Positions 1 through 18,190 of a stretch of DNA of 20,000 bases are shown here, one piece after another. This DNA is from an uncultured virus (IMG/VR IMGVR_UViG_3300022552_000006). Its lineage: Duplodnaviria; Heunggongvirae; Uroviricota; Caudoviricetes. How positions within the stretch are numbered: position 1 is the stretch's first letter; the number at the start of each line of letters is the position of its first letter. Position numbers and translations under genes: made by a program. Below the pieces are notes generated by a model, which searched no databases, was not told the origin of the DNA, and saw only the letters and a list, made by a program, of their open reading frames with translations. The stretch lies in IMG/VR virus record IMGVR_UViG_3300022552_000006; one strand, 5' to 3'.

Positions 1-413
1 CATATCCAGAGAAAATGGAAGAAGAAATCAAAAAGCTCAAAGAAGAAATAGAAGAACTCAAAAAGAAGAAATATCCATATCCAGAGAAAATGAGTGAAAC
101 TGAGCAAGAGCTTTCAGCTTACACAGATTTTATCAAAGAATATCTCAAGAAGCATCCAGGAGCGACAATAAAGGAAGCTGCAAAAGCTTGGGGAAAGGAG
201 CACAACGAGCTTGAGGAATCAAAGTCAAGCGTAACCGTAGAAGACTTGCAGACTCAGATAGGTGAAATAGTAACACAGAAAATGTCAGAATTTGGCGTAA
301 AGCCAATAAGAATTGCTCAGAAGTTCATAGATCCAAATAGCGAAGCTAATATAAATGCTTCAGAACTTGATTTGGCAATGTTCAATATGATTAAGGAGGG
401 GATTGGAGTATGA
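1..413 (+). CDS. C-terminal part of a probable capsid scaffolding (or protease-scaffold) protein, probably 5'-truncated by the window
   Basis: The frame is open back to the window edge (tat cca gag aaa atg = YPEKM), and YPEKM recurs at 78-92. E/K-rich coiled-coil character. Directly upstream of the capsid gene, with an ATGA overlap at 410-413. Confidence 0.65.
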   Translation, partial: YPEKMEEEIKKLKEEIEELKKKKYPYPEKMSETEQELSAYTDFIKEYLKKHPGATIKEAAKAWGKEHNELEESKSSVTVEDLQTQIGEIVTQKMSEFGVKPIRIAQKFIDPNSEANINASELDLAMFNMIKEGIGV

Positions 414-1420
414 GAACTATACAAGAGCTTGCTGATACAACCACTTCTCACAACACAGACCTTCTCGCAAAGAGATGGCTAAACACCATAGTAGATTCAG
501 CAAAGAAAAAGATGTTCTTTTTGGACATCGTTAGCCAGTATGATATGCCTCCAGGCACCCAGAGCATAGTAATACCTTACAGAAAAGGTTACTTTAGCAC
601 TCTTGGGACTTCAGTAACAGACACAACCACAGAAGGTAATTCAGTTACATTCACCACAATGAACAACCTTGAAGGTCTTACTTTAACACCTTCACCACAT
701 GCATATGGTGTAGCAATATCCAACAACGCTGTGAGAACTACAGCAGTTAACCTTATACAGGCTGCCAGAGAAGAGCTTACAGACTATTGGGCAGATGTAG
801 TTGACAAGGCAATTGCCGCTGCAATAAATGGAGCTCCAGTTGCAACATCATCGGCAAAAGGAGCTTCTGAATTGTTTGGTGGAGATGCTTCGTCAACATC
901 TACATTGGAATCTGGAGATATTCTAACACCATCACTTATAGTGAAGGCCAAAAGCAGACTACAAGGTACAACGATGTATTACTGGGACAGCGGTTCAGAA
1001 TCAAAATCATCACAGAGTAAGGCACCTTGGTTCTCGGAGCCCGACAGCCCATTTGTAATGTACATAGGCCCAGAACAGGAATATGTACTTTTGACTGATA
1101 GTCAGTTTACGAATGCGGCAGAATATGGTGGCAACGAGATTGTGCTTAACGGCGAAATAGGAAAATATCAGGGTGTTAAAATAATAACTTCAGTAAATAC
1201 CACATCAGCAACAAACTGGGGTGGTGGCAGTTTAGCTGGTCACAACTGTTACATGGTCAAGGCTCGCGTATCTGCAGCTTTAGCATGGGGACAGAGACCA
1301 AGATTGAGGATATTTGAGTATCCAAGTGACCTTGAAACCAGAATAATACTTGAACAAGCATACGCAACAGACTCTTTGCACAACGACTCGATTTGTCATG
1401 TGAAAGTCGCTGACGAGTAA
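410..1420 (+). CDS. Major capsid protein, HK97-like fold (resembles N4-gp56-type MCPs)
   Basis: 336 aa. MCP-like segments: 'LTLTPSPHAYGVAISN', 'EELTDYWADVVDKAIAAA', 'FVMYIGPEQEYVLLTDSQF', 'NGEIGKYQGVKIITS'. GGAGG/GGAG RBS. Follows the scaffold-like gene. Confidence 0.9.
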   Translation: MRTIQELADTTTSHNTDLLAKRWLNTIVDSAKKKMFFLDIVSQYDMPPGTQSIVIPYRKGYFSTLGTSVTDTTTEGNSVTFTTMNNLEGLTLTPSPHAYGVAISNNAVRTTAVNLIQAAREELTDYWADVVDKAIAAAINGAPVATSSAKGASELFGGDASSTSTLESGDILTPSLIVKAKSRLQGTTMYYWDSGSESKSSQSKAPWFSEPDSPFVMYIGPEQEYVLLTDSQFTNAAEYGGNEIVLNGEIGKYQGVKIITSVNTTSATNWGGGSLAGHNCYMVKARVSAALAWGQRPRLRIFEYPSDLETRIILEQAYATDSLHNDSICHVKVADE

Positions 1421-2376: not shown

Positions 2377-2910
2377 ATGCCAAATGAAGGTTTTGCAATG
2401 AATGACCAAGTGTCAAAACAAGTTAATAAAGCTCAAGACAGTTCGTTAAATTTTAGAGGTTGGTTTGAGATAGACCACATAAGAGACGGGCAAGTAATAG
2501 ACCACAGGGTTATCAATAACACGATAACAAATGCAGGGTTGGCAGAAGTTGCTGGACTGATAAATGCAGACCAAGCTGGATCATTAAACGCTTTTGACTA
2601 CATTGCCATAGGAACTGGCACTGGATCTGCAAGCGCAAGTGATACTCAATTGGAACATGAAATCACAAGCGGTGGCGGTTCAAGGCGTGGCGGTGCCGAT
2701 GTAACTGGGACAAGAGTAACTACAAGCGTGACAAATGACACGAGCCAATGGGTAACTACATTTACATTCACCGCATCATTTGCAGTAACTGAGAGCGGAA
2801 TATTTAACCAAAGTTCTGGTGGAACTATGCTTGCAAGGCAAACATTTTCAGCAATCAATGTAACATCTGGCGATTCATTGCAAATTACTTGGAAAGTCCA
2901 GTGTAGTTAA
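2377..2910 (+). CDS. Virion structural protein resembling tail-collar/fibre N-terminal (DUF3751-like) beta proteins
   Basis: Likely start is ATG 2377 after GGAGG, not 2296. Motifs 'NTITNAGLAEVAGLI', 'YIAIGTG', 'DTQLEHEI', 'VTESGIFNQSSGGTMLARQTF', 'GDSLQITWKV' match this phage structural family as I recall it. Confidence 0.65.
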   Translation: MPNEGFAMNDQVSKQVNKAQDSSLNFRGWFEIDHIRDGQVIDHRVINNTITNAGLAEVAGLINADQAGSLNAFDYIAIGTGTGSASASDTQLEHEITSGGGSRRGGADVTGTRVTTSVTNDTSQWVTTFTFTASFAVTESGIFNQSSGGTMLARQTFSAINVTSGDSLQITWKVQCS

Positions 2911-2954
2911 GGACTTTCCTAACGCCAATACAATGGCGTAATTGAGGCAATACA

Positions 2955-3245
2955 ATGCAATTTGAAGTTTTTTTTAGAAATGGCATGAGGCTTGTATCCT
3001 CGAACGATTTGGTTAATTGTGTTTATAACAATTCTGATGTGGAAAAAGTCATTCTTACCAGAGGCAGCCATAAATGGATTGTTAATCTTGATTCTGATGC
3101 TAGACTTATTTTCTGGCGTGACATCAATTTTTCTTCTCCGCCGCAAACAGTCTACAACATCGGCTATCAGAAAACGATTAAAGGGAAGAATGTGAAAACA
3201 ATTATGAAGATTTTTCCGGACAATAAAATCGAGCTGGTGAGCTAA
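2955..3245 (+). CDS. Hypothetical protein, 96 aa
   Basis: GAGG RBS. Stop codon abuts the next ATG at 3246. No recognisable motif. Confidence 0.65.
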   Translation: MQFEVFFRNGMRLVSSNDLVNCVYNNSDVEKVILTRGSHKWIVNLDSDARLIFWRDINFSSPPQTVYNIGYQKTIKGKNVKTIMKIFPDNKIELVS

Positions 3246-6200
3246 ATGGTTAAATACAGAAGAGTTTATTATGATAGCGTTAAGAAATATGGCTTAAAGA
3301 TTGGCATCACTTCAATTCCTGTTGTTTTTCTTCTTTTTATGCTTCTTGCCCAAAGAGGAGATATTACTATAACAGGATATTCTGGGGACATGGTCTGTGC
3401 AGGGACGGAATTAGATCCCTGCTATGCTTACATTAACTTCACAGCCAACACGGACATTTATATTTATCCCAACGAGAATTGGACATTCAGCACGAACCCG
3501 CCAGTGAGGAAAGTTATCCTGCAAAGGAGCTGGCGGGATTCTTGGAGGACAATAAACCTGAGCAAGCCGTGGAATAAGAATGTGAAATACGCCATAAAAT
3601 TTAGCAAAGGAAAAAGCTATCAGATTAGATTTATTGGATACAAATATTATCCTTATGATGACATTAAATGGGGATTCGGGGACATAGACCCCGTTTGGTA
3701 TGGTGATAAATGGATTTCTCCATCATGGTCTAAAGAGATAAAGGAAGTGGTAGAATACAACAACGGAACGAGAGCAGTAGTAGATTTTGACAATATTAAT
3801 TTTGCCGATATAGATAGAGCTGGATTATGGTTAGGAGACGAAAAGAAGAACATAGCAGGATTTGATAAGTCACACGGGCAGATAATATTGTATCCTAAAG
3901 GATATGACAAGCCACCAGTTAATTTGTTTGTCAGGATACATGCGACAAAAGGAGCAAGCACTTACACTAAATGGCTAACAAGCAACAAAGGAAAACCGTA
4001 TTGGAACGAGAAGATACTGGATGACGGAGCCACGCAGAAAGAATTAGGATATTATACAAACTTGACATATAACATATTTACGTTCCCCTGTTCTATTGGC
4101 ATTAGAGGAGACACCCACCACGAGAAATGGAAGATACCGATAAATGTTTCAACACCGATAGATTTGGATGATATTTCGGTGGAATATATATTCGCTGTAA
4201 ATCCAGATTCGGCAAAGAAAATGAAGTATGTGAGAGTAGTCGGGAAAAACGGTAGCGAGCAATACAGATTAAACAAGCTTATAGACAAATCCGGAGAGAT
4301 TACACATAATTTTTATTTCTTGGATGAAAATAATAATACGATTTCATTTGTAGATTTTGAAAAGGAATTTAACCTTTCAAACTCTCAAGAGTGGAAGATA
4401 AAAAGAGTCACGCTCCCAAATGGGCAGTTCGTGTATGTCTTGTCGATTAGATTCAGCTTCGGAAGTTTGGATATGGACGAAGTGTTAAGTCTCAATGCCG
4501 ATTGGACGACTCCGAGCAGCGTGGAGAGTTACAGTTCCCAGAGCTCTTTAGATACTGCAAGTAAGTCGATAGACGATTCCACTTCGAGTTATTGGGATGA
4601 AAATATTGGTAATGATAAAGATGGTCCGACTTACGAGTGGTATATCACATACGATATGGGGGACACCTACACGATTTCGAAGATAAGAATCTATGCAGAT
4701 GGCGATGAGAGTTATAATCCTTGTAAAGTAGGAATCATAAAAGTCTGTGACGACCCTGACTGTAATGGAGAATCTAATTTGTTAAGTTCTGCATGTTCAT
4801 TTTCTACTAAAAAAGAATGGCAGGAATGTTCATTTACGGCTACTTCAGGAAGGTATATCGAAGTTCGAGGAGGAATACGTCAGCCGTTTGGTGACTGTGT
4901 TAATAAAATTAATTATTTTTATACTCAAGATTTTTACGAGTTCGACGCCTATGTCGAGAGCGGGGACACATCTCCACCATCATTCTCAAACTGGCAACAG
5001 CAACCGCCAGATTTGAACTCAAGTTCTTTGGGAAAGTTATATATAAATGTCACGATAACGGACGATTCTGGAGTCAATGAATCTTCCGTAAAATTCTATC
5101 ATTGGATAAATGATTCACAATATCCAGACCAACCTTGGTGCTTCTTAAATGGAACTGCTGGGGATTTCGAACACGAGCATACTATGACCAACACTTCGTC
5201 TGTATTCAACATAACTCTGCACACTTACGCATACAACCCGTCAACGCATAATGTCCACCCAGAAACGATGAGGTCGGCAACGAAATACAATTATAGCTTG
5301 GATTCAAATAACAAGGCATTAAAAGTCAGGTTTTACAACATTTCAACTCATCCGAATACAACTTTTGTCCTAAAGCCAAGGCTATACAGAAATTCCGGGA
5401 ATTTGTTGATTTATTATTGTAACAGCTCTTATACGACTGGCAAGGTATACAATTCTGATTATTGTATCCCTATAGCGACACTAACTTCTCAAGAAGACAC
5501 AAACTACCAGAATACATATTTCTATGGGGATGAAAATTCTCTTTTAGATGGTATTAAGATTACATCAACGGGATACATAGTGTTTTATGCGGAGGTAGGT
5601 TCGGACTGGGAAGTTGCTTACGCCAACATAGATTCAAACTCGGTTGAAACGACAGGAAATGGTGGAACATCTTGGACTAATCAAGATTATTCAGCAGATA
5701 CTTGGTTAATACAACTTAACGGAAATGGGCTAACTACCGTTGGATACAAAGTTTACGCTTGCGATAATGTAGGAAACTGCGATAATTCAACAGTCCAAAA
5801 GGACACCTATGCCATACATAATTTTGCACCTTCGCCAGCACCAGAAATATTAGTTCCTGAAAATTCAACTTATTCTGGAATTTTTAACATAACTTGGACA
5901 GCGTCAAAAGACCCGAACAGCGACCCATTCAACTACTCAATATACTTATATCATTCTAATAATACTTTAGCTGCAATATTGGCAGACAACAACATAACCG
6001 AAGGAACTGAATATTACACATTCGATTCGACAGGTTATCCAAACGGACAGTATTATTTAATGGCAAATGCCACAGATGATGTAGGTAACACGAACTTCTA
6101 CATTATGCCATATTATTTCACATTAGATAATAACCCACCGTTTTGGTCAGACAATTCCACGAATTCAACATTAGCAGGAAGCCCAATATTACATTCTTTA

Positions 6201-8339
6201 AAGTGGTATGATAATGATGGTCTAAGCGGTTATATTTTCAGTTTCTACAACGGAAGCAACACAACTTCTTGCGACGGGACTTTGGACTGCTCTGGACTAA
6301 GCTCCGCCCAATGTCAGGCATGTTCTCAATGTTCTTACACGGCAGAAAATTGTAGCGGAACGCCCAATTCTTGCGATTCATACTCAAGCCAAAGCGACTG
6401 CGAACTTTGCGGTTGCACTTGGAGTGGCGGGGGAGGGAGCTATAACACCTATACACCAGACGATAATGACTTTGTCTGTACATTAAGAGCATCAGGAGGG
6501 GATTACTCTAAAATTAATGATTGGAGAAGTGCAATAGCATGCGATTTAACAGATTCCAGCACAAAGATATTCACGGTTTCAGATAGAGGTAATTATGATT
6601 CAAGTGACGATGGAAAAACGGTTACATTTTCAGGGGGAGGAACAGGAACTTTAAAACACATAAGCACATTTAACAAAGCTTTAATCGTAAGTTGTAGTGG
6701 AACTATAAATACTGGAACTGTAACTATAAGTTCAGGACATACGTTTACAATTTCAGATACAGGGCAACAAGTAGGGGATGTTGTTTTAAGTCTTTATAAC
6801 GATTGGGCAAACGGTTATGATGAAGGCAGTGCTTATATAGACATTAAAAATTTTGTGACGGATGCTAATCATAAAGTAGTGATATGGACAAACGCAAGTG
6901 CGTCTGGGACTCAAGGCCCGAACAGGCATAATGGAACTGCAGAAAGTGGATTTTTCGTTAATGAAACAGGCAGTAGTTACACTTTTGTTTTTAGAATATC
7001 TCATGTTCTTGTAGAAGGAATAGAAATTCAGCAACCTTCAAAACCTTCTATGGGAGTTTTCTATATGGATAGTGGATTAAATAATACATTTAGGAATTTA
7101 CTAATACATAATGTCGGGGGAATTGTTTATCATGGGGAAGCTTCAACAATAGAAAATTCTATAATCTACGATTTTGGAAGTTCGGGATATTCGGTTGTAA
7201 GATTCAATAAAGTTAGAAGTTGTAGCATTTTAGCAATGGGTAGTGGTAGCTATAGCAATCAAATCATAGTTCGAAATGCAGAATGTTACAATGTTCTTGT
7301 CTATAACAATAATTCTGGAACTGGTTATAATGATTATTACTCTTGCACTGGGGATTATAATATAGGTTCAGATAGTTCTGCTCCCGGAAGTCATTCACAA
7401 CACAATAAAGCGTTAAGCGATATAGATTTTGTTTCTACAACACCGGGAAGTGAGGATTTGCACATTCAGTCCACTTCGTGTGCAAAAGATGCTGGCACGG
7501 ATTTGTCGTCTTATTTCACGGATGATATAGATGCGTGCACAAGGTCAGGAACTTGGGACATAGGAGCGGACGAATATGATTGCACTGGTGGTGGAGGAGG
7601 AAGTGGTTCGTGTTCAGGAACTCCAAACTCATGTTCAATAGGAACTTGCGAGGCGATATGCGGTTGTACTTATACTCCCGAGTCCTGCTCTAACTTAGGC
7701 TCTTGCTCTGCGTGCGGAACAGAAGGGGATTGTAGCGATTGTTCACCGGCAGGGTGCAGTTGGAGTTCGGTGGAATTTGTGAACGACTCTTGGGTATCAA
7801 TGTCAGGAACAACGGACTGGTCAAACGTGACTAAAGTTGTGAATTCGACAGTAGGGGCAACAATAAAGTGGAAAGTATACGCAAATGACAGTAATGATAA
7901 TTGGAATGTCTCAGATGTTTTTACTTATATAACGACAAGTGGTGGCGCTCCGTCTGTGACTTTCGATATAAATCATAACACGACCGCTAATATCATTCGT
8001 TTTGTTAATTGTTCTCCGGATTGGGCATTTTATCCTACATATCCAGAAAACCAGACAACCAATGACGGCATCATAAATGCTACAAATGATGGAACACAAA
8101 GCGGGAATTTTGAAATCGAATATGTCGGAACATTGAATACGGGTTGGACACTATGGGCTTGTAATGCGTCAACCAACGATCCAAAAACCTCTTCTAACTG
8201 CGTACAACTTACAAACAGCTGGCAGTTAATCTGGTATAATGTAGCGGTGGATGAACAAAAAGACATATGGTTATATGGCAATTGTAGTTATGTGACTGCT
8301 AATCCAAGAGTGGGTATAGATATGCAAGCGGTGAGTTAA
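3246..8339 (+). CDS. Large membrane-anchored/secreted multidomain adhesin-like protein (N-terminal TM, discoidin F5/8C-like, Ig/FN3-like, Cys-rich, parallel beta-helix)
   Basis: 1697 aa. Basic N-terminus then hydrophobic 'IGITSIPVVFLLFMLLA'. Discoidin-like segment ~4500-4950 ('WYITYDMGDTYTISKIRIY', 'SGRYIEV'). Beta-helix cap 'DLHIQSTSCAKDAG...DIDACTRSGTWDIGADEY'. Roughly 45-50 N-x-S/T sequons by manual count. GGTGA RBS. Confidence 0.8.
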   Translation: MVKYRRVYYDSVKKYGLKIGITSIPVVFLLFMLLAQRGDITITGYSGDMVCAGTELDPCYAYINFTANTDIYIYPNENWTFSTNPPVRKVILQRSWRDSWRTINLSKPWNKNVKYAIKFSKGKSYQIRFIGYKYYPYDDIKWGFGDIDPVWYGDKWISPSWSKEIKEVVEYNNGTRAVVDFDNINFADIDRAGLWLGDEKKNIAGFDKSHGQIILYPKGYDKPPVNLFVRIHATKGASTYTKWLTSNKGKPYWNEKILDDGATQKELGYYTNLTYNIFTFPCSIGIRGDTHHEKWKIPINVSTPIDLDDISVEYIFAVNPDSAKKMKYVRVVGKNGSEQYRLNKLIDKSGEITHNFYFLDENNNTISFVDFEKEFNLSNSQEWKIKRVTLPNGQFVYVLSIRFSFGSLDMDEVLSLNADWTTPSSVESYSSQSSLDTASKSIDDSTSSYWDENIGNDKDGPTYEWYITYDMGDTYTISKIRIYADGDESYNPCKVGIIKVCDDPDCNGESNLLSSACSFSTKKEWQECSFTATSGRYIEVRGGIRQPFGDCVNKINYFYTQDFYEFDAYVESGDTSPPSFSNWQQQPPDLNSSSLGKLYINVTITDDSGVNESSVKFYHWINDSQYPDQPWCFLNGTAGDFEHEHTMTNTSSVFNITLHTYAYNPSTHNVHPETMRSATKYNYSLDSNNKALKVRFYNISTHPNTTFVLKPRLYRNSGNLLIYYCNSSYTTGKVYNSDYCIPIATLTSQEDTNYQNTYFYGDENSLLDGIKITSTGYIVFYAEVGSDWEVAYANIDSNSVETTGNGGTSWTNQDYSADTWLIQLNGNGLTTVGYKVYACDNVGNCDNSTVQKDTYAIHNFAPSPAPEILVPENSTYSGIFNITWTASKDPNSDPFNYSIYLYHSNNTLAAILADNNITEGTEYYTFDSTGYPNGQYYLMANATDDVGNTNFYIMPYYFTLDNNPPFWSDNSTNSTLAGSPILHSLKWYDNDGLSGYIFSFYNGSNTTSCDGTLDCSGLSSAQCQACSQCSYTAENCSGTPNSCDSYSSQSDCELCGCTWSGGGGSYNTYTPDDNDFVCTLRASGGDYSKINDWRSAIACDLTDSSTKIFTVSDRGNYDSSDDGKTVTFSGGGTGTLKHISTFNKALIVSCSGTINTGTVTISSGHTFTISDTGQQVGDVVLSLYNDWANGYDEGSAYIDIKNFVTDANHKVVIWTNASASGTQGPNRHNGTAESGFFVNETGSSYTFVFRISHVLVEGIEIQQPSKPSMGVFYMDSGLNNTFRNLLIHNVGGIVYHGEASTIENSIIYDFGSSGYSVVRFNKVRSCSILAMGSGSYSNQIIVRNAECYNVLVYNNNSGTGYNDYYSCTGDYNIGSDSSAPGSHSQHNKALSDIDFVSTTPGSEDLHIQSTSCAKDAGTDLSSYFTDDIDACTRSGTWDIGADEYDCTGGGGGSGSCSGTPNSCSIGTCEAICGCTYTPESCSNLGSCSACGTEGDCSDCSPAGCSWSSVEFVNDSWVSMSGTTDWSNVTKVVNSTVGATIKWKVYANDSNDNWNVSDVFTYITTSGGAPSVTFDINHNTTANIIRFVNCSPDWAFYPTYPENQTTNDGIINATNDGTQSGNFEIEYVGTLNTGWTLWACNASTNDPKTSSNCVQLTNSWQLIWYNVAVDEQKDIWLYGNCSYVTANPRVGIDMQAVS

Positions 8340-10190
8340 TTGCCCCTTCAACTTTATGCCGAATTCAAAAAAACATTAGCAGAAACTATCACTTTATCAG
8401 ACACGAAAATAATTAAAACAAGCATAGAGATGGCGGAGACAGCAACATTTACCGATTCATTGGCAAAAAAGTCGCAGGCATTTTTCAGCGAAACACTTGA
8501 TTTGACGGATTCGGTATATAATTTTGCTAAAATAATCATATCGGATTTAATCGACTTTAGCGATTCGATAGCTAAGCAAGCATCTTATAAAAAAGCTTTA
8601 AGTGATTTGTTAAACTTATCCGACAGCTTAAAAAGCATAAAATCCTTACATAAGGCATTTCAAGAAACGCTTGATTTATCTGATTTCATTATTACCAAAA
8701 CAACATATCAAAAAATAATTTCAAATTCCATAACTCTATCCGATCAGCATTATATCAGCGCCCACAAAGTCATAGCCTCTACTTTAATCTTGTCTGATGT
8801 CAAAAAGTTTTTTATTAATAAAGTTCCTATTCAAGATGCTGTCAATTTAAGCGACAGTACATCTAAAAAGCCACAGAAAGTCATGATTGATTCAATAACT
8901 ATAAATGACGCACTCGAAAAAACGCTTGCCGCAGTCCGCATAATTTCCGAAACCTTGGATATAACAGATACTTTCGATAGAATTGGCACTTTTTATAGAA
9001 GCTTTAGCGACAGTATATCATTTTCTGATTCAGTGGAAAGAATAAAATCATATATAAAAGAACTTTCTGAATCAATATCATTGTTAGATTCGGTTATAAA
9101 GACTGGAAACTTCACGCGCGTGTGGACTGAAACTATAGACATAACAGATACTGTTCCAAAGGACTTGAAAAGGGCGTATCATGAATCTATTACATTAAAC
9201 GATCAAATTGAAAAAGTTTTTGGCAAGTCATTTGTATTTACAGAGACTTTGAATTTAACTGATACAACGCGAAAATTCGCAAAGCACCCTATTACAGATG
9301 CGCTCACTTTGGTCGATAGTTTAGCCAAGAAGAGTAACATTACGCTGACAGAGAGTATGAATGTTGCAGATTCTGTTATAAAAGGGGCAGGAAAGGTATT
9401 GTCAGATTTTCTCGCGCTTTCCGATTTTATTGGTTTTCAGAAGACAATTCATATTGTGTTCACGGATAGCTTTTCAATCAGTGATTTCATTGTCAAAGAT
9501 ACCAGCATATATTTCATTGACTCTATTTTTATTACAGATACTATACCAAAAGAGTTTCACAAAACCATTATAGAGCTAATAAATTTTGTGGATTATGCAT
9601 CAAGGTACACAAAATCATTCTTATCGGACAATTTGGTTTTAATTGATGCATCATATAAGCGTACATCAACGCAGCTTAGCGATTCTATGGCTTTGTCGGA
9701 TAGCATAAAAAAGAAGCCAAGCAAATGTTTGTATGAAACAATAACACTATCTGATTATTCAATTCGCTTTAGCAATAAAGTGATTTTGAATAGCATTAGT
9801 ATAACAGACACATTCAGCAGGCAGCTAACAAAATTCATAACTCTTTCCGACACATTAAGCTTGGCAGATTATATTCAAAAAATAAAAATACAATTGAAAG
9901 TTTTACAAGAGAAGCTAACTTTGACGGATACAATCAATAAAACACCACTCATTGAGCTACTTGATACAATCAGTTTGTTTGATTTCGCATTTATACGCCC
10001 TCCAATCGAGCTTTTCATTGAAGCAAAGAGAATCAAACCAATATTAAGCATCGTGAAATCCGAAGATATGGCTTTGGAAGCTGGAGAAGTGGCTCCAGCA
10101 TTGGCATTTATGGAAAAAACCGTCGGAAAGATGATAAAAGCAAAAAAGCATAAGCCAGCTCTTGCATCCAGCGATAGAGAGGGGGTTTAA
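8340..10190 (+). CDS. Repeat protein with 29 copies of an [E/D]-x-h-x-h-x-D motif at 18-20 aa period; putative fibre or filament scaffold
   Basis: TTG start directly after the upstream TAA, with GGTGA at 8329-8333. Repeats ETITLSD, ETATFTD, ETLDLTD ... DTISLFD counted by eye. Confidence 0.75.
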   Translation: MPLQLYAEFKKTLAETITLSDTKIIKTSIEMAETATFTDSLAKKSQAFFSETLDLTDSVYNFAKIIISDLIDFSDSIAKQASYKKALSDLLNLSDSLKSIKSLHKAFQETLDLSDFIITKTTYQKIISNSITLSDQHYISAHKVIASTLILSDVKKFFINKVPIQDAVNLSDSTSKKPQKVMIDSITINDALEKTLAAVRIISETLDITDTFDRIGTFYRSFSDSISFSDSVERIKSYIKELSESISLLDSVIKTGNFTRVWTETIDITDTVPKDLKRAYHESITLNDQIEKVFGKSFVFTETLNLTDTTRKFAKHPITDALTLVDSLAKKSNITLTESMNVADSVIKGAGKVLSDFLALSDFIGFQKTIHIVFTDSFSISDFIVKDTSIYFIDSIFITDTIPKEFHKTIIELINFVDYASRYTKSFLSDNLVLIDASYKRTSTQLSDSMALSDSIKKKPSKCLYETITLSDYSIRFSNKVILNSISITDTFSRQLTKFITLSDTLSLADYIQKIKIQLKVLQEKLTLTDTINKTPLIELLDTISLFDFAFIRPPIELFIEAKRIKPILSIVKSEDMALEAGEVAPALAFMEKTVGKMIKAKKHKPALASSDREGV

Positions 10191-10193
10191 ATA
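10186..10193 (+). promoter_or_regulatory. Possible archaeal TATA box for the neck/tail genes
   Basis: TTTAAATA preceded by purine-rich GAGAGGGGG, about 35-40 nt upstream of ATG 10229. The AT-rich context makes a chance match possible. Confidence 0.25.
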
Positions 10194-10228
10194 TTCGAGA
10201 TAAAAAAAAAGTATTAGAAGGTGATTAA

Positions 10229-11173
10229 ATGGGAATTTTATTGAGATGGAGATTGCCAGATTTGGATGAAGTGACTTATAACAAAACTGTTATTTATAGG
10301 GCGTCTTCGCAAACCGGGACTTATACACAAATTGCTGTACAGGACATTTCTGATAATACATATTTTGACCAGAGTGGGGCTACAAGCAACTGGTATAAAA
10401 TCAGGTTCAGGGGAGGCAGCGCTGGAAGTTATTTTTATTCTGATTATTCAGATGCTATGCAAGGTGGGACATGGCGCGGTTATTGTAGCCCAGATGATGT
10501 TAGGCTGTTAGCTAATTTAAGCTCAACAGATATAAGCGATTCCACTTTATATGACATAATTACATTTGCTATGGCCCAGTTAAATCATGAAATAAACTCA
10601 AAAATAATAGAAGAGACTGTCGAAGAAATAGATTCCACGCGCGAAAACAAAATTGACGGGTCAAACAAAACATTTTATGTAAAAAAATCATTTGACTGGT
10701 ACATCGGAGACCTCGATGATGATGGAGATGTTGATACAGATGATATAGAAGTTTATGAATATGATAGCGATGGTAACAGAACACAGATGACAGTATCTGA
10801 AATATATCCAAATGAGGGCAAGTTTGTGCTTAGCTCGGCGCCATCGTCAGGAAGCACATTGAAAGTTACATACACCTATGCTCCGGTATCCGAAAGCGAT
10901 CCACATCCGTTATTGAGGCAAGCCTGTGCATACCTTGCCGCGTCTTTAGCCTACACGCGCATTGAAACTGGCTATTATGAAAAATTGCAGCTTGGTAAGC
11001 TTACATTGCAAAATATGACAAGCGGATTTACAAAGCATTTTAACCAATATCAAAGGATTTTGCACTATCTCAAGACAAGGATGCTCAGGAGAACAGACGA
11101 CAAGGATTTCTGGAGGAAAGAGTTTGTAACGCCTTGGACTTCAGACAAGACTGGGCGAATTGGAGTGAGATAA
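10229..11173 (+). CDS. Head-tail adaptor/connector (SPP1 gp15/HK97 gp6-like) with N-terminal FN3-like and inserted beta domains
   Basis: 'YCSPDDVRLL...IITFAMAQLNHEI' and 'HPLLRQACAYLAASLAY' are adaptor-like helices. N-terminal 'LRWRLP...IYRA...YFD...WYKIR' is FN3-like. AGGTGA RBS. Synteny. Confidence 0.7.
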   Translation: MGILLRWRLPDLDEVTYNKTVIYRASSQTGTYTQIAVQDISDNTYFDQSGATSNWYKIRFRGGSAGSYFYSDYSDAMQGGTWRGYCSPDDVRLLANLSSTDISDSTLYDIITFAMAQLNHEINSKIIEETVEEIDSTRENKIDGSNKTFYVKKSFDWYIGDLDDDGDVDTDDIEVYEYDSDGNRTQMTVSEIYPNEGKFVLSSAPSSGSTLKVTYTYAPVSESDPHPLLRQACAYLAASLAYTRIETGYYEKLQLGKLTLQNMTSGFTKHFNQYQRILHYLKTRMLRRTDDKDFWRKEFVTPWTSDKTGRIGVR

Positions 11174-11174
11174 T

Positions 11175-11621
11175 ATGGTATCTGCCGTAGTTCAACAATT
11201 TAGGGATGGATTAAGGCAAATTTTTAGCAAAGCTCAGGAAACAATAACATACCATTCAATTACGCGTGGTAGAGATGCTGATGACAATCCAATTGAATAT
11301 ATTACGCCATCTTCGGTTCAAGCTGTCGTGCAAATACTCAGGTTAGATGACATTACTGAGTATGCGGGTACATTGGAAGTTGGAGATGCAATGGTGTTTT
11401 TCAAGCATGATGCAAGCGTAAGTACCGAAGACAGGATAATTCACAATGGCGTCACCTACAGGATTATAGATGTCTTTCCTGAGATGGTTAATGGCGAAAC
11501 TATTTTTTTTCAGGCGCTCTGCAAAAGGGAAAAATACAAGCCAAGTGGAGAAGCCCATTATTTGAAAACGCTTTCTGAAAGCATGGAAATGGCTGATAGC
11601 GTAAGCGGGACAATCTTATAA
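11175..11621 (+). CDS. Head closure/stopper protein (SPP1 gp16-like)
   Basis: 'VSTEDRIIHNGVTYRIIDV' is a typical head-closure motif. Follows the adaptor gene. Confidence 0.7.
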   Translation: MVSAVVQQFRDGLRQIFSKAQETITYHSITRGRDADDNPIEYITPSSVQAVVQILRLDDITEYAGTLEVGDAMVFFKHDASVSTEDRIIHNGVTYRIIDVFPEMVNGETIFFQALCKREKYKPSGEAHYLKTLSESMEMADSVSGTIL

Positions 11622-11703: not shown

Positions 11704-12171
11704 ATGGTAAGCCTGAATACGTTAGGAGACGATGCAATTACATTTTTTAGAGATGTCCTTAGGCAAAATCTTCAAGATAAGCAAAATCCTCAGCGATCGG
11801 GAAGCGAATGGATTTATAAATCCCGTCCCGCGACCAAAGAAATTGACTTGCCATTTGTCATAGTAACCGAAAATAAGGAAGAGTCGACAAGAATAACCAT
11901 CGATAGGGCAAGTGTCAAATTGAGCAGTCCAGTAATTCGATTGGACATTCGCGTTTGGGCACACAAGATAAATCATAGGGATGAAATTGCCGACCAGATT
12001 GTTAAAGTGCTTAAAAACCCTGCATCTTCAGACGGCTCAAAAACTATAGCACAAAATTATTTTGTGTTCAAGCGCTATGAAAAATATGAAGAGGACGGCA
12101 AAATTGCCGACTTTCCCGAAATATTGCGCATAAAGAGAGTGATGATAGAATTTGCTTATATAGGTGGATAA
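11704..12171 (+). CDS. Putative tail terminator/tail completion protein (SPP1 gp17/lambda gpU-like)
   Basis: Pattern 'LPFVIV...RLDIRVWAH...RDEIADQIVKVL...KRVMIEF'. Located between the neck and tail tube genes. Confidence 0.65.
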   Translation: MVSLNTLGDDAITFFRDVLRQNLQDKQNPQRSGSEWIYKSRPATKEIDLPFVIVTENKEESTRITIDRASVKLSSPVIRLDIRVWAHKINHRDEIADQIVKVLKNPASSDGSKTIAQNYFVFKRYEKYEEDGKIADFPEILRIKRVMIEFAYIGG

Positions 12172-12172
12172 G

Positions 12173-12652
12173 ATGACGCTTACAATTAGAATAAGACTTA
12201 AAGGTATTGAAAAAATTAATAAAAGATGGAAACTGTTCAGAAAGGTAAGCCAATTAACCGTGCCAGAAGTGGACAAAATTGGCGATGCAATTACGCGAAT
12301 CGCGAAACAACTAGCGCCAAAGTTCGAATATGGTCTTAGCGAGGGAATTGAATATAGCGTTACATCCACGCATAACAAAAATTCGCTGTTAATAGAAAAT
12401 AATGTAAGGTATGCTTACTTCCAAGAATCAGGTTTCACACCACATTATGCGCCAATAACCGAATATGCGAAAAGATGGCTTGATGCTCATAGCACCGGTG
12501 CCAGTGGACATCAACCTGGAAAAAAAGGATATTTTTTCGTCAAGAAATATACACCTCACATTGATCCCGCAGTTGAGCTTGTGAGGCCTGATATTCCCCG
12601 TGTTTTAAAGGGAAAAGTTGATAGCATAATAGCAAAAATCGGAGGGATTTAA
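12173..12652 (+). CDS. HK97 gp10-like neck/tail component
   Basis: 'IRLKGIEKI', 'AKQLAPKFEYGLSEGI', 'NVRYAYFQESG', 'PHIDPAVE' match the gp10-like pattern. ATG 12173 follows AGGTGG; alternative GTG start at 12164. Confidence 0.7.
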   Translation: MTLTIRIRLKGIEKINKRWKLFRKVSQLTVPEVDKIGDAITRIAKQLAPKFEYGLSEGIEYSVTSTHNKNSLLIENNVRYAYFQESGFTPHYAPITEYAKRWLDAHSTGASGHQPGKKGYFFVKKYTPHIDPAVELVRPDIPRVLKGKVDSIIAKIGGI

Positions 12653-12896: not shown

Positions 12897-13508
12897 ATGG
12901 CATTAGCAGCTGGAGCATGGAGTGAAACTGCGTTAGTAACCATAACAAAGTTGGGGAGCTCAAATGTTGAGTTTGCAGCCTTAACCGAGACAATAGACAT
13001 AGATATGGGAGACAAAGACATCGACCACATAGTTAATGTTAGCGGTGGAAGAATGGTAAAGAAAACTCCACAAGACATAACAACAATAACTTTTGAGGGA
13101 TACCCTCTCGATATTGATTCAACAAACGGTACAGGCGTTTCCCAAATGTTCGAAGGAGGGACATGGGGCACAACTGAACCACTTGAAGCGTCTGCAAGCC
13201 GTAGCCGTGACTTGTTCAGAATTGCAATATTGTGGACTGATGACACATCAGCAACATCTGCAGCTGGAGCAACTGCAACATCGACAAACTCATACAGAAT
13301 TGTGTTTGCACACTGTTGGATGACAAGCATGAAGCCAAGCTTTACCGACGGAGTCCTTAAGTTTACATTTTCGTTTAAGTGTCCGGCATTCAACCCGATG
13401 GGAACAGCCAACATAAAAGAGCAGTCAGGTGACGATACTGCACTAACAACATTAAACGATTATAGCACTTCAAATTATCCTCCAAGAGGAAGCTCTTACA
13501 CATGGTGA
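12897..13508 (+). CDS. Putative major tail tube protein, paralog 1
   Basis: 203 aa, T/S rich with beta pattern, strong GGAGGAG RBS. Lies after tail completion genes and before chaperones and tape measure. Confidence 0.7.
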   Translation: MALAAGAWSETALVTITKLGSSNVEFAALTETIDIDMGDKDIDHIVNVSGGRMVKKTPQDITTITFEGYPLDIDSTNGTGVSQMFEGGTWGTTEPLEASASRSRDLFRIAILWTDDTSATSAAGATATSTNSYRIVFAHCWMTSMKPSFTDGVLKFTFSFKCPAFNPMGTANIKEQSGDDTALTTLNDYSTSNYPPRGSSYTW

Positions 13509-13514
13509 TGAAAA

Positions 13515-14153
13515 ATGACATTAGCAGCTGGAGCATGGAGCGAGACCGCATTGGTTTCGATTGCATATTATGGAAATGGATCGCAATCTAACAATGATAT
13601 GCAGTTTGCAGCATTAACCGAAACGATAGATATAGATATGGGCGACAAGGACATTGATCAAATTGTAAGTGTAGCGGGGGGTAGACTCGTGAAAAAAGTG
13701 CCCCAAGATTTAACTACAATCACTTTCGAGCTTTATCCGCTTGACATTGATGCAAAAGGTGAAACAGGGATTTCGCAGATATTTCATGACATATCATCAA
13801 ACTGGGATTCTTCTGAACCGCTTGAAGTTTCGGCAACAAGAAACAGGGATTTATACAGGATAGCAATCTTATGGACAGATGATACAAGTGTTACGACAGC
13901 CAATGGTGCAATATCTTCAGGTAACAATGCATACAGAATTATATTTGCGCACGCATACTGTACAAGTTACAAGCCATCATTTACCGATGGTGTGCTTAAA
14001 GTAACAGCCACATTCAAAGTGCCCGCTTTCAATCCTAACGGCGTTGCAAACATTCACGAGCAATCTACAGATGGAACTGCAACAATAAGTGCATTGAATA
14101 CATACAATTCATCAAACTATAATCCAAATGGAAGCTCTGCTTACTCTTGGTAA
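13515..14153 (+). CDS. Putative major tail tube protein, paralog 2
   Basis: 212 aa, collinear with paralog 1: shared LAAGAWSETALV, FAALTETIDIDMGDKDID, RIAILWTDDTS, KPSFTDGVLK. GGTGA RBS. Confidence 0.7.
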   Translation: MTLAAGAWSETALVSIAYYGNGSQSNNDMQFAALTETIDIDMGDKDIDQIVSVAGGRLVKKVPQDLTTITFELYPLDIDAKGETGISQIFHDISSNWDSSEPLEVSATRNRDLYRIAILWTDDTSVTTANGAISSGNNAYRIIFAHAYCTSYKPSFTDGVLKVTATFKVPAFNPNGVANIHEQSTDGTATISALNTYNSSNYNPNGSSAYSW

Positions 14154-14192: not shown

Positions 14193-14888
14193 ATGAAACA
14201 ACCAAAAGTTTTAGTAGCCGCTCCAACATGGGAAGGGCATAAATACATATTGCCCAAGTATTTAAATAGAGTTAAGAATCTCGACTATGACAATTATTCA
14301 GTTTTGCTTGTAAACAATGGAAAAAGCAAGTCTTTTTCAAAGTGGCTTATAAAACAAGGTGTGAAAGTAATCAAAATTCATTACAAGAATAATATATTTG
14401 AAAGGATAACAGATGCCAGAAACGCGATAATAAATTATGTTCTTCAACATCCGGACATCAAATATTTGCTTAGCTTGGATACCGATGTAATACCGCCAAA
14501 AAATATAATTACCAAGCTATTGAACCATAAAAAGCCGCTTGTGGGGTCGCTTGTGCATGCTGGCTATTATCATAAAGTACCTTGTATTTTGAAAGACGGA
14601 TATTTGATTAAGAAAGGACAAAGAGGCTTGTCTTTTTATAGCTGGAAAGAAGTTGTTAAAATGAGGCAAAAGAAACCATTACATAAAGTTTGGGGAACTT
14701 CTGTTGCGTGCTTGTTAATACACAGAAAAATATTTGAAGCTGGAGTCAAATTCCGTTATACACCATATTTTCATGTGGGGGAAGATATATGGTTTATGTC
14801 TGAGGCCAACGAAAAAGGCTTTTCGTTTTATGTTGATGTCAGTAAGCGAATTCCCCATTATAATATGCCGAAGAGGGTGAGCAAATGA
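14193..14888 (+). CDS. Glycosyltransferase, GT-A fold (family 2-like)
   Basis: 'KVLVAAPT', 'VLLVNNG', 'DARN', DxD motif 'LLSLDTDV', 'ACLLIHRKIFE', 'GEDIWF'. GAGGTGA RBS. Confidence 0.85.
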   Translation: MKQPKVLVAAPTWEGHKYILPKYLNRVKNLDYDNYSVLLVNNGKSKSFSKWLIKQGVKVIKIHYKNNIFERITDARNAIINYVLQHPDIKYLLSLDTDVIPPKNIITKLLNHKKPLVGSLVHAGYYHKVPCILKDGYLIKKGQRGLSFYSWKEVVKMRQKKPLHKVWGTSVACLLIHRKIFEAGVKFRYTPYFHVGEDIWFMSEANEKGFSFYVDVSKRIPHYNMPKRVSK

Positions 14889-15169
14889 AAGAGATTGATA
14901 ATGTTAAACAATTTTTGAAAGACCATAAACCTGACTTGAGCATTTCGAGGGTTCCGAAAAAAACACTCGAAATTTTCAAGCAGCTTGCAAAAGACGAATT
15001 TGCAAACGATTATGGAATGACATTAAAATATCTTGTAGATTATGCTATTAGAGATGCAAAGTATATGGAGCTATCCCAAAGGCTTCTTATACTTGAAGAA
15101 AAAGTGTTAAGCGAAAAGAAAAAAACGATAAAAACACTATCGGGAAAAGTCATAAAGGAGGTGGAATAG
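14885..15169 (+). CDS. Putative ribbon-helix-helix DNA-binding protein with coiled-coil tail
   Basis: 'LSISRVPKKTLEIFKQLAKDEF...GMTLKYLVDYAI' has the strand-helix-helix RHH pattern. ATGA overlap with the GT gene. Confidence 0.5.
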   Translation: MKEIDNVKQFLKDHKPDLSISRVPKKTLEIFKQLAKDEFANDYGMTLKYLVDYAIRDAKYMELSQRLLILEEKVLSEKKKTIKTLSGKVIKEVE

Positions 15170-15170
15170 A

Positions 15171-15605
15171 ATGGATATTAGTAAGGAGGAAATTGAAAAA
15201 CTCAGAAAGCATATGGGATTGGCGCAAGAATTTAAAATCGGCAATGATACATTTCATTTCAAGCCATTGAATGCAGAAGACATTCCAGACCTGATTGAAA
15301 TAATAAGAGTATTCAAAAACGCTGCAGAATCAGGCAAAGAAGATACAACATGGCTGGATGCAATGGACAGGGAATCAATGCTCAAGCTAATCAAACTGCT
15401 TAAGAAAATGGTTAGCATATCTTACCCTGACCTTAGCGAAGAGGAAGTGAAGAGTTTTGTATCTGCAAACTTCATCAACTTGACAATAATAATGATGCAG
15501 ATAAACGATCTTGGCGCCAAGAATGTAAATAGAATACAGGAAAAGCTTGCTGAGTTGAGAAGCCGAAGAATGCCTAAGCAGGCGAAAGCAAATGGTGGCG
15601 CCTAA
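15171..15605 (+). CDS. Putative tail assembly chaperone
   Basis: 144 aa: 'EFKIGNDTFHFKPLNAEDIPDL' followed by helices. Located between tail tube and tape measure genes. GGAGGTG RBS. Confidence 0.65.
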   Translation: MDISKEEIEKLRKHMGLAQEFKIGNDTFHFKPLNAEDIPDLIEIIRVFKNAAESGKEDTTWLDAMDRESMLKLIKLLKKMVSISYPDLSEEEVKSFVSANFINLTIIMMQINDLGAKNVNRIQEKLAELRSRRMPKQAKANGGA

Positions 15606-15819
15606 GCTAAGAGAAATACTTGATAAGGCAAAGTCCAGAGATTTGGCAAGAATACATCACAACTTGATGCAGTATTATCAGTGCTGGATTCCTGTTGAAG
15701 AATTTAGAAAGATACCGATTCCCACTTTAATAGACCTGCTTGAATACATAGACCAAGATTTAAGCAAAATTCCTCCTTCAAAAATAGGTGGAAGGAGATT
15801 GTATGGTCGAAACAAGTAA
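15592..15819 (+). CDS. Small pre-tape-measure protein (second chaperone-like ORF)
   Basis: 75 aa. 'WIPVEEFRKIPIPTLIDLL' resembles the helical motif of gpT-like chaperone halves. Overlaps both neighbours. Confidence 0.55.
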   Translation: MVAPKLREILDKAKSRDLARIHHNLMQYYQCWIPVEEFRKIPIPTLIDLLEYIDQDLSKIPPSKIGGRRLYGRNK

Positions 15820-18190
15820 ATTGAGAGTTATAATAGAGTTCATTACAGAAAACTTGGCAGCTGTTAGCAAGGCTGGTTTGGAACTAAGAAAAATACGAGA
15901 AGCTTCAAGAGCCTTGGGTATAAGCTGGACTCGCACTGGTAGCGCAATAAAGAAAGGCACCAAAGGTTTTATTGATCCAATTGAAGCGAGCTCTCAAGTA
16001 TTGGAGCGACAAGCTGCATTTGGCGTAGTTGCCAACGATGTTATGAAAGGTTTGCAAGAAAATGCACAAGCATTTGGAGTAACTTTTGCTAGTACAGGAA
16101 AGATAATTGACCAGCAAACAGGCAGGTTTACATCTCTTTATGGAGCGGTCAGAAAAGCTCAAGAAGCATATCCGCCATTCACATCCAAACAAGAGGCAGT
16201 TCAGCATTTTACATCTGCATTACGAATAACGCAAGACCAGCTTATGGAAAAACTGAAATTAGCCAATTTGACCATAAAAGAGAATGGGGAAATATGGGAT
16301 AACATAAGGCATAGTCAAATGAGTGTTAGGGAAGCCACAAAAATACTATCGCGTACATTCAGGCATTTTCAGATGCAATTGCTATCTGTGATGTTCTTTG
16401 GCATGAACATAAACAAGATGTTTATGGGATGGCTTAAGCCTGCAATGGAAGCTTATGGTATATTTGACCTTTGGAATGACATGTTGCTTGTCACGATGTT
16501 GCCTGTAATGGATGACCTTTCTGATACGCTTTATAATGTTATGTTTGCAATTATGGACTTGCCCGAACCTGTGCAGAGAGCAATTGGCTGGCTTACTGTC
16601 ATGGGTGCAGTCGGCGGCAAGTTGCTTTATTCATTCGGTGTAATTGGTCTTGGCATTAATGGATTAGTTCAAGCATTTCCAATTTTAGGTAAATTAGCAA
16701 CAAAGTTGTCAGTGCTTGGAACTGGATCAGTAGAAGCAGCTGCAACTTATAATGCTTCAGTAACAGGTATGGCGGAAAGCACTGTAGGAGCGTCTACAAT
16801 TTCGATTACTTCTATTGCTAGTTTGGTTTCTTTTATCGCTACAGCGGCTTTATTAATATATTCTGCATGGAAAGAAATGGGAAATGTAATGACAATAAAT
16901 AACAAAATAGCTCTTGATAAACAGAAAAAAGACTGGGATTCTTACAGAACGCATACATTAATGCGTTCGATTGAAATGCAAAATATGGTTCCACGTATTA
17001 TACAAAGAATGCTATACACCGTGGGCAGTATTGTGCATCAAGTAGGTACTATGCTTGCGATGGGATTTGAAGATTTAATTACTCTTGTGGCACATGGCTA
17101 TAATTTTATAGCTCGATTTGCTATAGGTCAGCTTATAGGTGCGTTTAAGCAACTTTTCTCATGGCTTAAGAACCTTCCAGGAACAGCAGGCGAATTTTTC
17201 GGAGACCTTTTAAATAAGATGGATATATTTGAGGCAAATCTTGCTACAACAATGACTAAATGGGATGAAGACATTGAAAAGGCACATGCTGATAGAATGA
17301 CACGAATTGTTCAAAATTCAACAAATGCTGCAACAGATGCAGCACGAAGATTTGAACAAGACATGGCAGAAGCCACAAAAGAAACCATCAAAAATATGAT
17401 AAAAATGAAAATTCCAGTAAAGGATATTGTAGATGTTTATGGTGACCAGAAAGCAGCTATGGATGTTATGTGGGAAGCTGCGAGAAGCGGCGAAATATCA
17501 ATGAAAGAATTAAATGATGCTGTGTGGGAACATAACAAAGACCTTCAGCAGGCGGCTATAAGCACCGGAAATTTTGGAATGAGCGTTGACGAACTCAAAA
17601 ACAAAATTAGTGCAGATTACAACAGTATCCTGAATGATGCAAAGACTACATTCCCAGCTATCAGCTCAATAGGAATAACTTCTGTTGATGATGTCAACAA
17701 GGCATTTGACGAGATGAGCAATAATTATAAGACAAATTCCACTACAATATTGCAGACTGCAAATACCGATTCAAGTCAAACATCTTCCGCATGGGAAGAT
17801 GCCATGAATGAAATGAAAGAAACAACAAATACTACGGTAACCGCGATTAATAAAACACTTGATAAAATCAAGCGCGAAATTCACACTTACCACTATCTCC
17901 ATAAAATTACAACTTATGGATATATATCAAAAGGCGGTGGAGTCTCATCCAAATATGTTGCATTCCAAGAAGGAGGCATAGTCTTAAGACCAACTTTAGG
18001 GCTTCTTGGAGAAGCAGGACCTGAAGCAGTTATACCATTGAATAAGGCAAGAAGTAGCATGCCTACAGTTATAAATTATAATCCGACAATAAATATATCA
18101 GCTGAAATCTCGAATGAGGTTGATATTGACAGGCTGATGAATAGAATAGACGACCATATCGTTGGAAAATTAAGGCAGATGGTGAGTTAA
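15803..18190 (+). CDS. Tail tape measure protein
   Basis: About 795 aa, helical and Ala-rich with central hydrophobic segments. C-terminal TMP motif 'FQEGGIVLRPTLGLLGEAGPEAVIPLN'. ATG 15803 follows GGAG; alternative GTG start at 15788. Confidence 0.9.
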   Translation: MVETSKLRVIIEFITENLAAVSKAGLELRKIREASRALGISWTRTGSAIKKGTKGFIDPIEASSQVLERQAAFGVVANDVMKGLQENAQAFGVTFASTGKIIDQQTGRFTSLYGAVRKAQEAYPPFTSKQEAVQHFTSALRITQDQLMEKLKLANLTIKENGEIWDNIRHSQMSVREATKILSRTFRHFQMQLLSVMFFGMNINKMFMGWLKPAMEAYGIFDLWNDMLLVTMLPVMDDLSDTLYNVMFAIMDLPEPVQRAIGWLTVMGAVGGKLLYSFGVIGLGINGLVQAFPILGKLATKLSVLGTGSVEAAATYNASVTGMAESTVGASTISITSIASLVSFIATAALLIYSAWKEMGNVMTINNKIALDKQKKDWDSYRTHTLMRSIEMQNMVPRIIQRMLYTVGSIVHQVGTMLAMGFEDLITLVAHGYNFIARFAIGQLIGAFKQLFSWLKNLPGTAGEFFGDLLNKMDIFEANLATTMTKWDEDIEKAHADRMTRIVQNSTNAATDAARRFEQDMAEATKETIKNMIKMKIPVKDIVDVYGDQKAAMDVMWEAARSGEISMKELNDAVWEHNKDLQQAAISTGNFGMSVDELKNKISADYNSILNDAKTTFPAISSIGITSVDDVNKAFDEMSNNYKTNSTTILQTANTDSSQTSSAWEDAMNEMKETTNTTVTAINKTLDKIKREIHTYHYLHKITTYGYISKGGGVSSKYVAFQEGGIVLRPTLGLLGEAGPEAVIPLNKARSSMPTVINYNPTINISAEISNEVDIDRLMNRIDDHIVGKLRQMVS

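Follow-up and report, generated by a model that had tools for sequence, protein, structure and literature searches.

Chain-like virion fibres, in which pairs of a small protein (the beads) sit along an extended polypeptide (the rope), have been solved since 2023 in only a handful of phages and hold from 2 to 11 bead pairs. This work deals with a stretch of 20,000 nucleotides from the uncultured virus IMGVR_UViG_3300022552_000006 (IMG/VR; Caudoviricetes), the whole of which is called here the window. From sequence comparisons and from its likeness to the solved fibres, it probably encodes such a beads-on-a-rope fibre of the kind found in GP4, A1002, Bas63 and Sf14, with the bead at 2377-2910 and the rope at 8340-10190. 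The mechanism of strand complementation is already known, and the window would hold a variant of a solved fibre design. In chaperone-usher pili, one polypeptide lends a strand that fills the incomplete beta-sandwich of another, the donor being the N-terminal extension of a subunit. These pili are the product of a bacterial secretion system with a chaperone and an usher, made of unrelated proteins, and the likeness is one of principle only; a Pfam scan of the window revealed no chaperone-usher genes. Among the phage fibres, Fiber-1 of GP4 was reportedly described by Zheng et al. in 2023 (J Mol Biol 435:168258).

The papers on these fibres give the following picture. In the Pseudomonas podophage A1002 there are 11 gp80-like dimers (gp40/gp41), each with an augmented beta-sheet shared with a domain of the rope, which belongs to gp39, a nozzle-rope protein; about 268 rope residues serve the 11 dimers, and these span about 300 A (PMC13730344). 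The A1002 beads have 147 and 171 residues, the longer one carrying about 30 extra N-terminal residues that are unseen in the map (PMC13730344). Fiber-1 of the Ralstonia podophage GP4 consists of five gp80 dimers on a separately encoded rope (PMC13730344), and this chain-like fibre is held by an immunoglobulin-like (Ig-like) fibre-tail adaptor (PDB 8JOU; PMC13730344, PMC12609058). In the felixounaviruses Bas63 and Sf14, whisker dimers are arranged on the rope extension of the neck collar protein "like beads on a string", and the Bas63 rope threads the grooves of the bead monomers, completing their incomplete sandwiches (PMC12609058). The neck fibre of the Anabaena myophage A-1(L), gp82-gp81-gp80, is rope-less and has about 16 beads joined by N-terminal beta-hairpins (PMC10966104).

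The window encodes a tailed virus's structural module, with all genes on the plus strand. In a preliminary description of this DNA, it was claimed that a unit repeated 29 times in one protein recurs once at the C-terminus of the head-closure protein and, as a weaker match, at the N-terminus of the 2377-2910 protein, and that the latter protein could grip this unit as a docking strand to build a neck-anchored filament. The elements concerned are these:

2377..2910, plus strand: putative bead (fibre subunit) of 177 residues, Gp80 family
2386..2430, plus strand: single rope-like unit at the bead N-terminus, EGFAMNDQVSKQVNK, residues 4-18
8340..10190, plus strand: putative rope protein of 616 residues, TTG start
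8373..10001, plus strand: 29 putative docking units of 18-20 residues
10002..10187, plus strand: non-repeat C-terminal 62 residues of the rope
11175..11621, plus strand: head-closure (stopper) protein of 148 residues
11568..11603, plus strand: single putative docking unit at the head-closure C-terminus, TLSESMEMADSV, residues 132-143

The bead matches phrog_5417 (E 2.8e-23) and phrog_4176, annotated "tail fiber" (E 6e-13), and its family comprises 663 matches. Of 70 family members, which are 50-81% identical to the window bead, 28 match the Pfam model PF23140, "Podophage GP4 fiber I protein gp80", with E≤1e-3, the lowest value being 2.7e-8. By way of its family members and this model, the 2377-2910 protein can be said to belong to the GP4 gp80 family.

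Segmentation of the 616-residue protein gives the 29 units that had been counted before, with a spacing of 18 (16 times), 19 (once) or 20 (11 times) residues and a consensus of about xLSETLTLSDSVxKxxGK. The units are rich in Ser and Thr and show a strand-like alternating pattern, and when they are scored with a profile from other ropes, 24 reach at least 10 bits and 28 at least 5 bits. The known ropes are described as series of docking segments of about 20-25 residues, and the 29 consecutive units of 18-20 residues in the window form such a series. The rope matches phrog_12240 (E 1.7e-26) and has 52 homologues, many of them with LamG, BNR or DUF2341 heads preceding the repeats; no sequence similarity was found between it and the solved ropes, A1002 included. 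Its C-terminal 62 residues contain no unit matches and no Pfam match.

Other searches were less productive. A tblastn comparison of the rope with isolated phages gave no match, a search for rope loci in viral contigs found none, and the sole yield of the metagenome scan was the same virus, L001 and L002. Searches for P0011 in genome contigs, and for P0058, P0040 and P0023 in viral contigs, found none either. The rope alignment is too variable for scanning, and the ESM Atlas returned only unnamed viral clusters. AlphaFold2 models of the rope have a mean predicted local distance difference test score (pLDDT) of 31.7 without an alignment and of 43.7 with 53 sequences, values too poor for the fold to be read.

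The protein at 11175-11621 matches phrog_161, "head closure Hc1" (E 4.3e-5), and PF05521 at E 1.3e-3, which is below the cut-off. Its gene follows an adaptor-like gene of 314 codons, and Neck1 (phrog_5) is encoded two genes downstream. Positions 11577-11597 encode ESMEMAD, inside a tail that reaches the stop codon as KTLSESMEMADSVSGTIL. That this tail is very close to the repeat unit was rightly noticed beforehand, coordinates included: with a matrix made from the 29 units of the window, TLSESMEMADSV scores 12.0 bits and ranks first among the 5633 12-mers of the 21 other window proteins (random P 1.4e-5). Taken as a 16-mer, the tail again ranks first (of 5549), its 8.2 bits lying at the low end of the leave-one-out scores of the units themselves (4.3-26). 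In all five head-closure homologues (56-75% identical; from 5.8 billion proteins) the best unit match lies at the same C-terminal place, with 11.2-24.5 bits, and two of these tails are nearer to the unit consensus than that of the window.

A family-wide unit profile, for which 515 units were taken only from 52 other rope proteins, also separates the tails. The six tails, with that of the cluster representative P0061 among them, reach 15.8-26.6 bits, and the remaining 77 head-closure representatives do not exceed 8.7 bits. These representatives come from a family profile search of 1.84 billion representatives, which gave 79 matches, most of 116-124 residues; 78 were scanned for the unit and one protein of 1956 residues was left out. 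The tail is present only in the representative of the window's own cluster, and the others end about 25 residues earlier. At the DNA level it shares 23 of 48 positions with the most similar rope unit, so it is not a recent copy. Scanning genome and viral contigs with the head-closure alignment found no loci.

As for the bead, positions 2386-2406 encode EGFAMND, residues 4-10 of a protein whose start is preceded by a strong Shine-Dalgarno sequence and whose homologues begin at the same Met. The claim of a weaker match at this end stands: with the family-wide profile over 15 positions (E...K), EGFAMNDQVSKQVNK scores 10.1 bits and ranks first among the 5570 15-mers outside the rope (random P 3.3e-5), although it is at background with the matrix of the window only. 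In a scan of 120 family members, window included, a unit of at least 10 bits starting at residue 3-12 is present in 18 of the 66 homologues of at least 165 residues but is absent from all 54 shorter ones, and a comparable match beyond residue 30 occurs nowhere among the 120. Single units are thus kept at fixed termini and absent from relatives without the extension, which supports their reading as docking tags.

Gene co-occurrence, which the preliminary description had named as a check, links the two main proteins. A scan of IMG/VR with the bead alignment gave at least 578 relatives, confirmed among 600 stretches, and the best 80 of these relatives were examined. Forty of the 80 loci are well covered (at least 5 kb downstream and at least 3 kb upstream of the bead), and 28 of them have a rope-like open reading frame (ORF), with at least 3 units at 8 bits or more, within 5 kb of the bead: 23 downstream and 5 upstream, 12 of them being immediate neighbours. 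On the plus strand 45 of 1014 ORFs are rope-like, and on the minus strand 0 of 365. Among the 12 misses, L055 and L056 have 17-residue repeat proteins unseen by the matrix, and the rope of L032 lies just beyond 5 kb. The same bead-then-rope order is found in L003, L007 and L008, which were reached via rope homologues. In L010 (GenBank MW202796) the bead homologue is annotated as "tail collar fiber protein" and is directly followed by a 429-residue protein (7360-8649) with Ser/Thr-rich repeats of about 19 residues ending ..K.V.K, a divergent rope type missed by the matrix.

The longest ropes of the survey, with 1199 residues and 39-40 unit matches, are those of L029 (10541-14140) and L033 (10542-14141), where they come directly after the bead. 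In the short-tailed-looking virus of L008, a lone unit-like stretch lies in the interior of a protein of 1209 residues (7959-11588), at residue 194 and with 14.8 bits, and may be a further single docking site.

The link with the neck comes from two relatives in which the rope is fused to a head-closure domain, as detected with the profile of the window's own head-closure family. L011, the closest relative among those examined (bead 53% identical), has the order adaptor, head closure, bead, a 953-residue homologue of a giant protein of the window, and a rope of 550 residues with 15 units (9454-11106). In its last 126 residues this rope forms a head-closure domain, which shares 52% identity (E 2e-48) with the stand-alone copy of the same locus (5349-5762). 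Similarly, the L032 rope (14384-16672; 762 residues, 14 units) has a C-terminal head-closure domain (E 3e-6) and is followed by a stand-alone copy at 16669-17079. These fusions place the rope on the head-closure ring, that is, at the neck. The window virus has instead a free rope and one unit on the C-terminus of the head-closure protein.

A second candidate anchor is the adaptor-like protein encoded between them:

10229..11173, plus strand: adaptor-like protein of 314 residues

Its N-terminal, beta-rich domain of about 80 residues is shared with the gene that immediately follows the rope in L008 (E 2e-5) and L031 (E 1e-12), which makes the protein a candidate for anchoring the rope; it also matches weakly (E 0.01) the head-tail adaptor of L011 (phrog_442).

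For the assembled structure, we infer binding, dimer state, stoichiometry, length and location on the particle from the solved fibres. Each rope unit would be an extended strand that occupies a bead dimer's groove and completes the incomplete beta-sandwich of the dimer, and the resulting flexible fibre would measure roughly 80 nm, scaled from A1002 (11 dimers per about 300 A). The unit at the head-closure C-terminus would be a docking site for a bead dimer on each neck subunit, tying beads to the neck and possibly, through them, the free rope; the relatives with fusions would reach the same end by joining a second head-closure copy to the whole rope. At the bead N-terminus, the unit would either fill the groove of a neighbouring bead, as a head-to-tail link, or occupy the bead's own groove as a placeholder until assembly. 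The earlier idea of a docking strand gripped by the 2377-2910 protein agrees with the solved fibres, with PF23140, with the co-occurrence and with the rope-head-closure fusions; what has to be changed is the polymer with one monomer per unit, because solved beads are dimers on a rope. It was also said that no system like this had been described, which is wrong, as systems of this kind include GP4 (2023), A1002, VP1 and Bas63/Sf14. A strong ribosome-binding site precedes the bead gene, and the rope has a coupled TTG start, a difference which, as weak evidence, would fit many beads per rope.

Compared with GP4, the window has in common a small bead of the Gp80 family (PF23140), a separate rope with serial docking sites and a probable attachment near the head-tail junction. 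On the other hand, GP4 is a podophage of a Gram-negative host with 5 dimers, whereas the window belongs to a long-tailed virus with a tape measure and 29 units; besides, its head-closure protein and the N-terminus of its bead each bear a unit, and the Pfam and PHROGs scans recognised no Ig-like collar protein in it. The A1002 beads of 147 and 171 residues find a parallel in the beads of roughly 155 and 177 residues of the window's family. However, in A1002 the nozzle protein includes the rope, the fibre is wound around the tail tube, and no docking unit is known on the neck proteins.

The likeness to Bas63 and Sf14 lies in neck-anchored beads on a rope whose strand completes the sandwiches of bead dimers, and in Bas63 the bead N-termini augment sheets between beads. 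In Bas63 a dedicated Ig-like collar protein is extended at its N-terminus into the rope, which bears 2 dimers only, and this collar merely touches the head completion protein, whereas in the window the head-closure protein itself carries a unit and in L011 and L032 the whole rope. A-1(L), likened here by description and not by homology, has head-to-tail beads joined through N-terminal hairpins, a precedent for the bead's own N-terminus as a link; its beads are trimeric, there is no rope protein, and the anchor is a 15-mer neck protein.

Apparently new in the window are the docking unit on the head-closure protein, the one on the bead's own N-terminus, and a free rope of 29 sites in a long-tailed, possibly archaeal virus. 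The survey suggests that the design is widespread, with at least 578 IMG/VR stretches encoding a bead, and that it reaches long-tailed, probably archaeal viruses, with about 30-40 docking sites and anchoring by the head-closure protein. A tag of 12-15 residues that recruits a defined small protein would explain both the attachment and the extension of the fibre.

Several observations weigh against a fibre of this kind, or against the role given to the single units. Taken alone, the bead of the window reaches no better than E 0.02 with PF23140, at 15.6 bits against a cut-off of 27. Searches of the PDB with sequences and profiles (rope, bead, and the bead, rope and head-closure families) returned nothing relevant and no gp80-like bead or rope, which leaves the Pfam model as the sole link to solved structures. 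With the matrix of the window only, the bead N-terminus comes 229th among 5633 12-mers and 86th among 5549 16-mers; to be significant it needs the longer profile of the whole family, which also covers the K..GK half. An N-terminal unit is found in just 1 of the best 80 IMG/VR beads. The head-closure tail corresponds to the first half of a unit, without the K..GK part, and is confined to a narrow clade (6 proteins with it, 77 representatives without); none of the three head-closure matches in the 80 IMG/VR loci has a C-terminal unit. Finally, 12 of the 40 well-covered loci show no rope detectable by the matrix used. A complex prediction of two bead cores (24-177) with the head-closure protein gave interaction prediction scores from aligned errors (ipSAE) of 0.01 and 0.00, no evidence either way.

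The strand-like pattern of each unit, together with the fact that single units cannot fold alone and need a partner, could also mean that the units bind one another, the rope folding or oligomerising by itself into a long beta structure to which the single units are added as end strands, without the 2377 core as acceptor. This is improbable, since beads without an N-terminal unit still adjoin ropes in L003, L007 and L008, and 43 of the 79 IMG/VR beads without it (again among the best 80 of at least 578) have a rope in their locus. Moreover, the solved homologous systems show bead-rope and not rope-rope contacts, and AlphaFold2 gives no confident autonomous fold for the rope. The reading preferred at the beginning of the analysis, with the tail docking on the rope, was itself downgraded because of the Gp80 link and the co-occurrence data.

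It is likewise improbable that the single copies have no present role, being leftovers of past fusion or recombination with rope genes, or chance look-alikes in proteins rich in Ser, Thr and Asp. Domain shuffling does occur, as seen in the rope-head-closure fusions of the relatives, and the half-unit tail and the background rank of the N-terminal match with the window-only matrix point in the same direction. Nevertheless, the tails have kept near the unit consensus in proteins that otherwise diverge to 56% identity, the tail does not resemble the units at the DNA level, the rope precedes the head-closure domain in the fusions whereas the unit of the window is C-terminal, and both matches rank first in the window exactly at termini. 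A non-bead partner that reads the unit as a tag seems very improbable: the candidates are a GT2 glycosyltransferase (14193-14888), for which the unit would be a Ser/Thr-rich glycosylation site, or the capsid surface. The transferase does lie in the tail module and the units are rich in both residues, but there is no co-occurrence evidence for it, the invariant pattern of acidic and hydrophobic residues is more in keeping with a structural strand than with a sugar acceptor, and the pairing of bead and rope genes needs no third party.

The beads-on-a-rope interpretation can be extended further, in a form that we regard as rather unlikely. The docking unit would be a portable tag that makes a dedicated collar unnecessary: the head-closure ring would nucleate bead dimers, and the N-terminal tags of the beads would link them and the free rope of 29 sites by donor-strand exchange as in pili, giving a self-assembling neck fibre of about 80 nm or longer in a probably archaeal long-tailed virus. 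If this were true, other cargo could also be attached to the fibre by means of this tag.

Between the bead and the rope there are two more genes, which may form a cassette with them:

2955..3245, plus strand: protein of 96 residues inside the cassette, perhaps part of the system by its position
3246..8339, plus strand: cassette protein of 1697 residues between the bead and rope genes, with a possible fibre role

The first has no family match in Pfam or PHROGs. The giant protein has an N-terminal hydrophobic, membrane-type segment, many N-x-S/T sites, repeated Cys-rich stretches and a galactose-binding-like domain (PF22633, E 2.5e-4). Its N- and C-terminal domains match the 953-residue ORF between bead and rope in L011 (E 1e-9 and 3e-17); as only these are common to both, the middle appears swappable. 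The giant ORF and the rope ORF share one frame, separated by a single TAA followed by TTG (8337-8342), with GGTGAG upstream, and the junction is read as translational coupling. A single read-through protein was considered and rejected, because TAA is the commonest stop codon in the window (16 of 21) and GGTGAG precedes the TTG.

The remaining features of the window are the following:

15-413, plus strand: scaffold-like protein
410-1420, plus strand: major capsid protein, then two small ORFs before 2377
12164-12652, plus strand: Neck1 (phrog_5)
12897-13508 and 13515-14153, plus strand: adjacent tube-like paralogues
14193-14888, plus strand: GT2-type glycosyltransferase (PF00535 E 9e-6, Anp1 E 8e-7)
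15788-18190, plus strand: tape measure, then distal tail genes

There are some hints of an archaeal host, which is possible for this virus. Among isolated phage records, the sole match of the capsid protein (410-1420) is an Altiarchaeum virus (38.8% over 35%, E 3e-10), and two bead homologues, P0189 and P0220, are named from metagenome-assembled genomes of Heimdallarchaeota and Aenigmatarchaeota. The record of the Altiarchaeum virus, the nearest capsid relative, has no obvious bead or rope.

The two tube-like proteins have no family match in Pfam or PHROGs and are 65% identical to each other (E 8e-99), a tandem duplication. The glycosyltransferase gene lies inside the tail module, flanked by these tube genes and by chaperone-like genes. 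Upstream of the tape measure there are two overlapping small ORFs (15171-15605 and 15592-15819), at the usual site of the frameshift pair of tail assembly chaperones.

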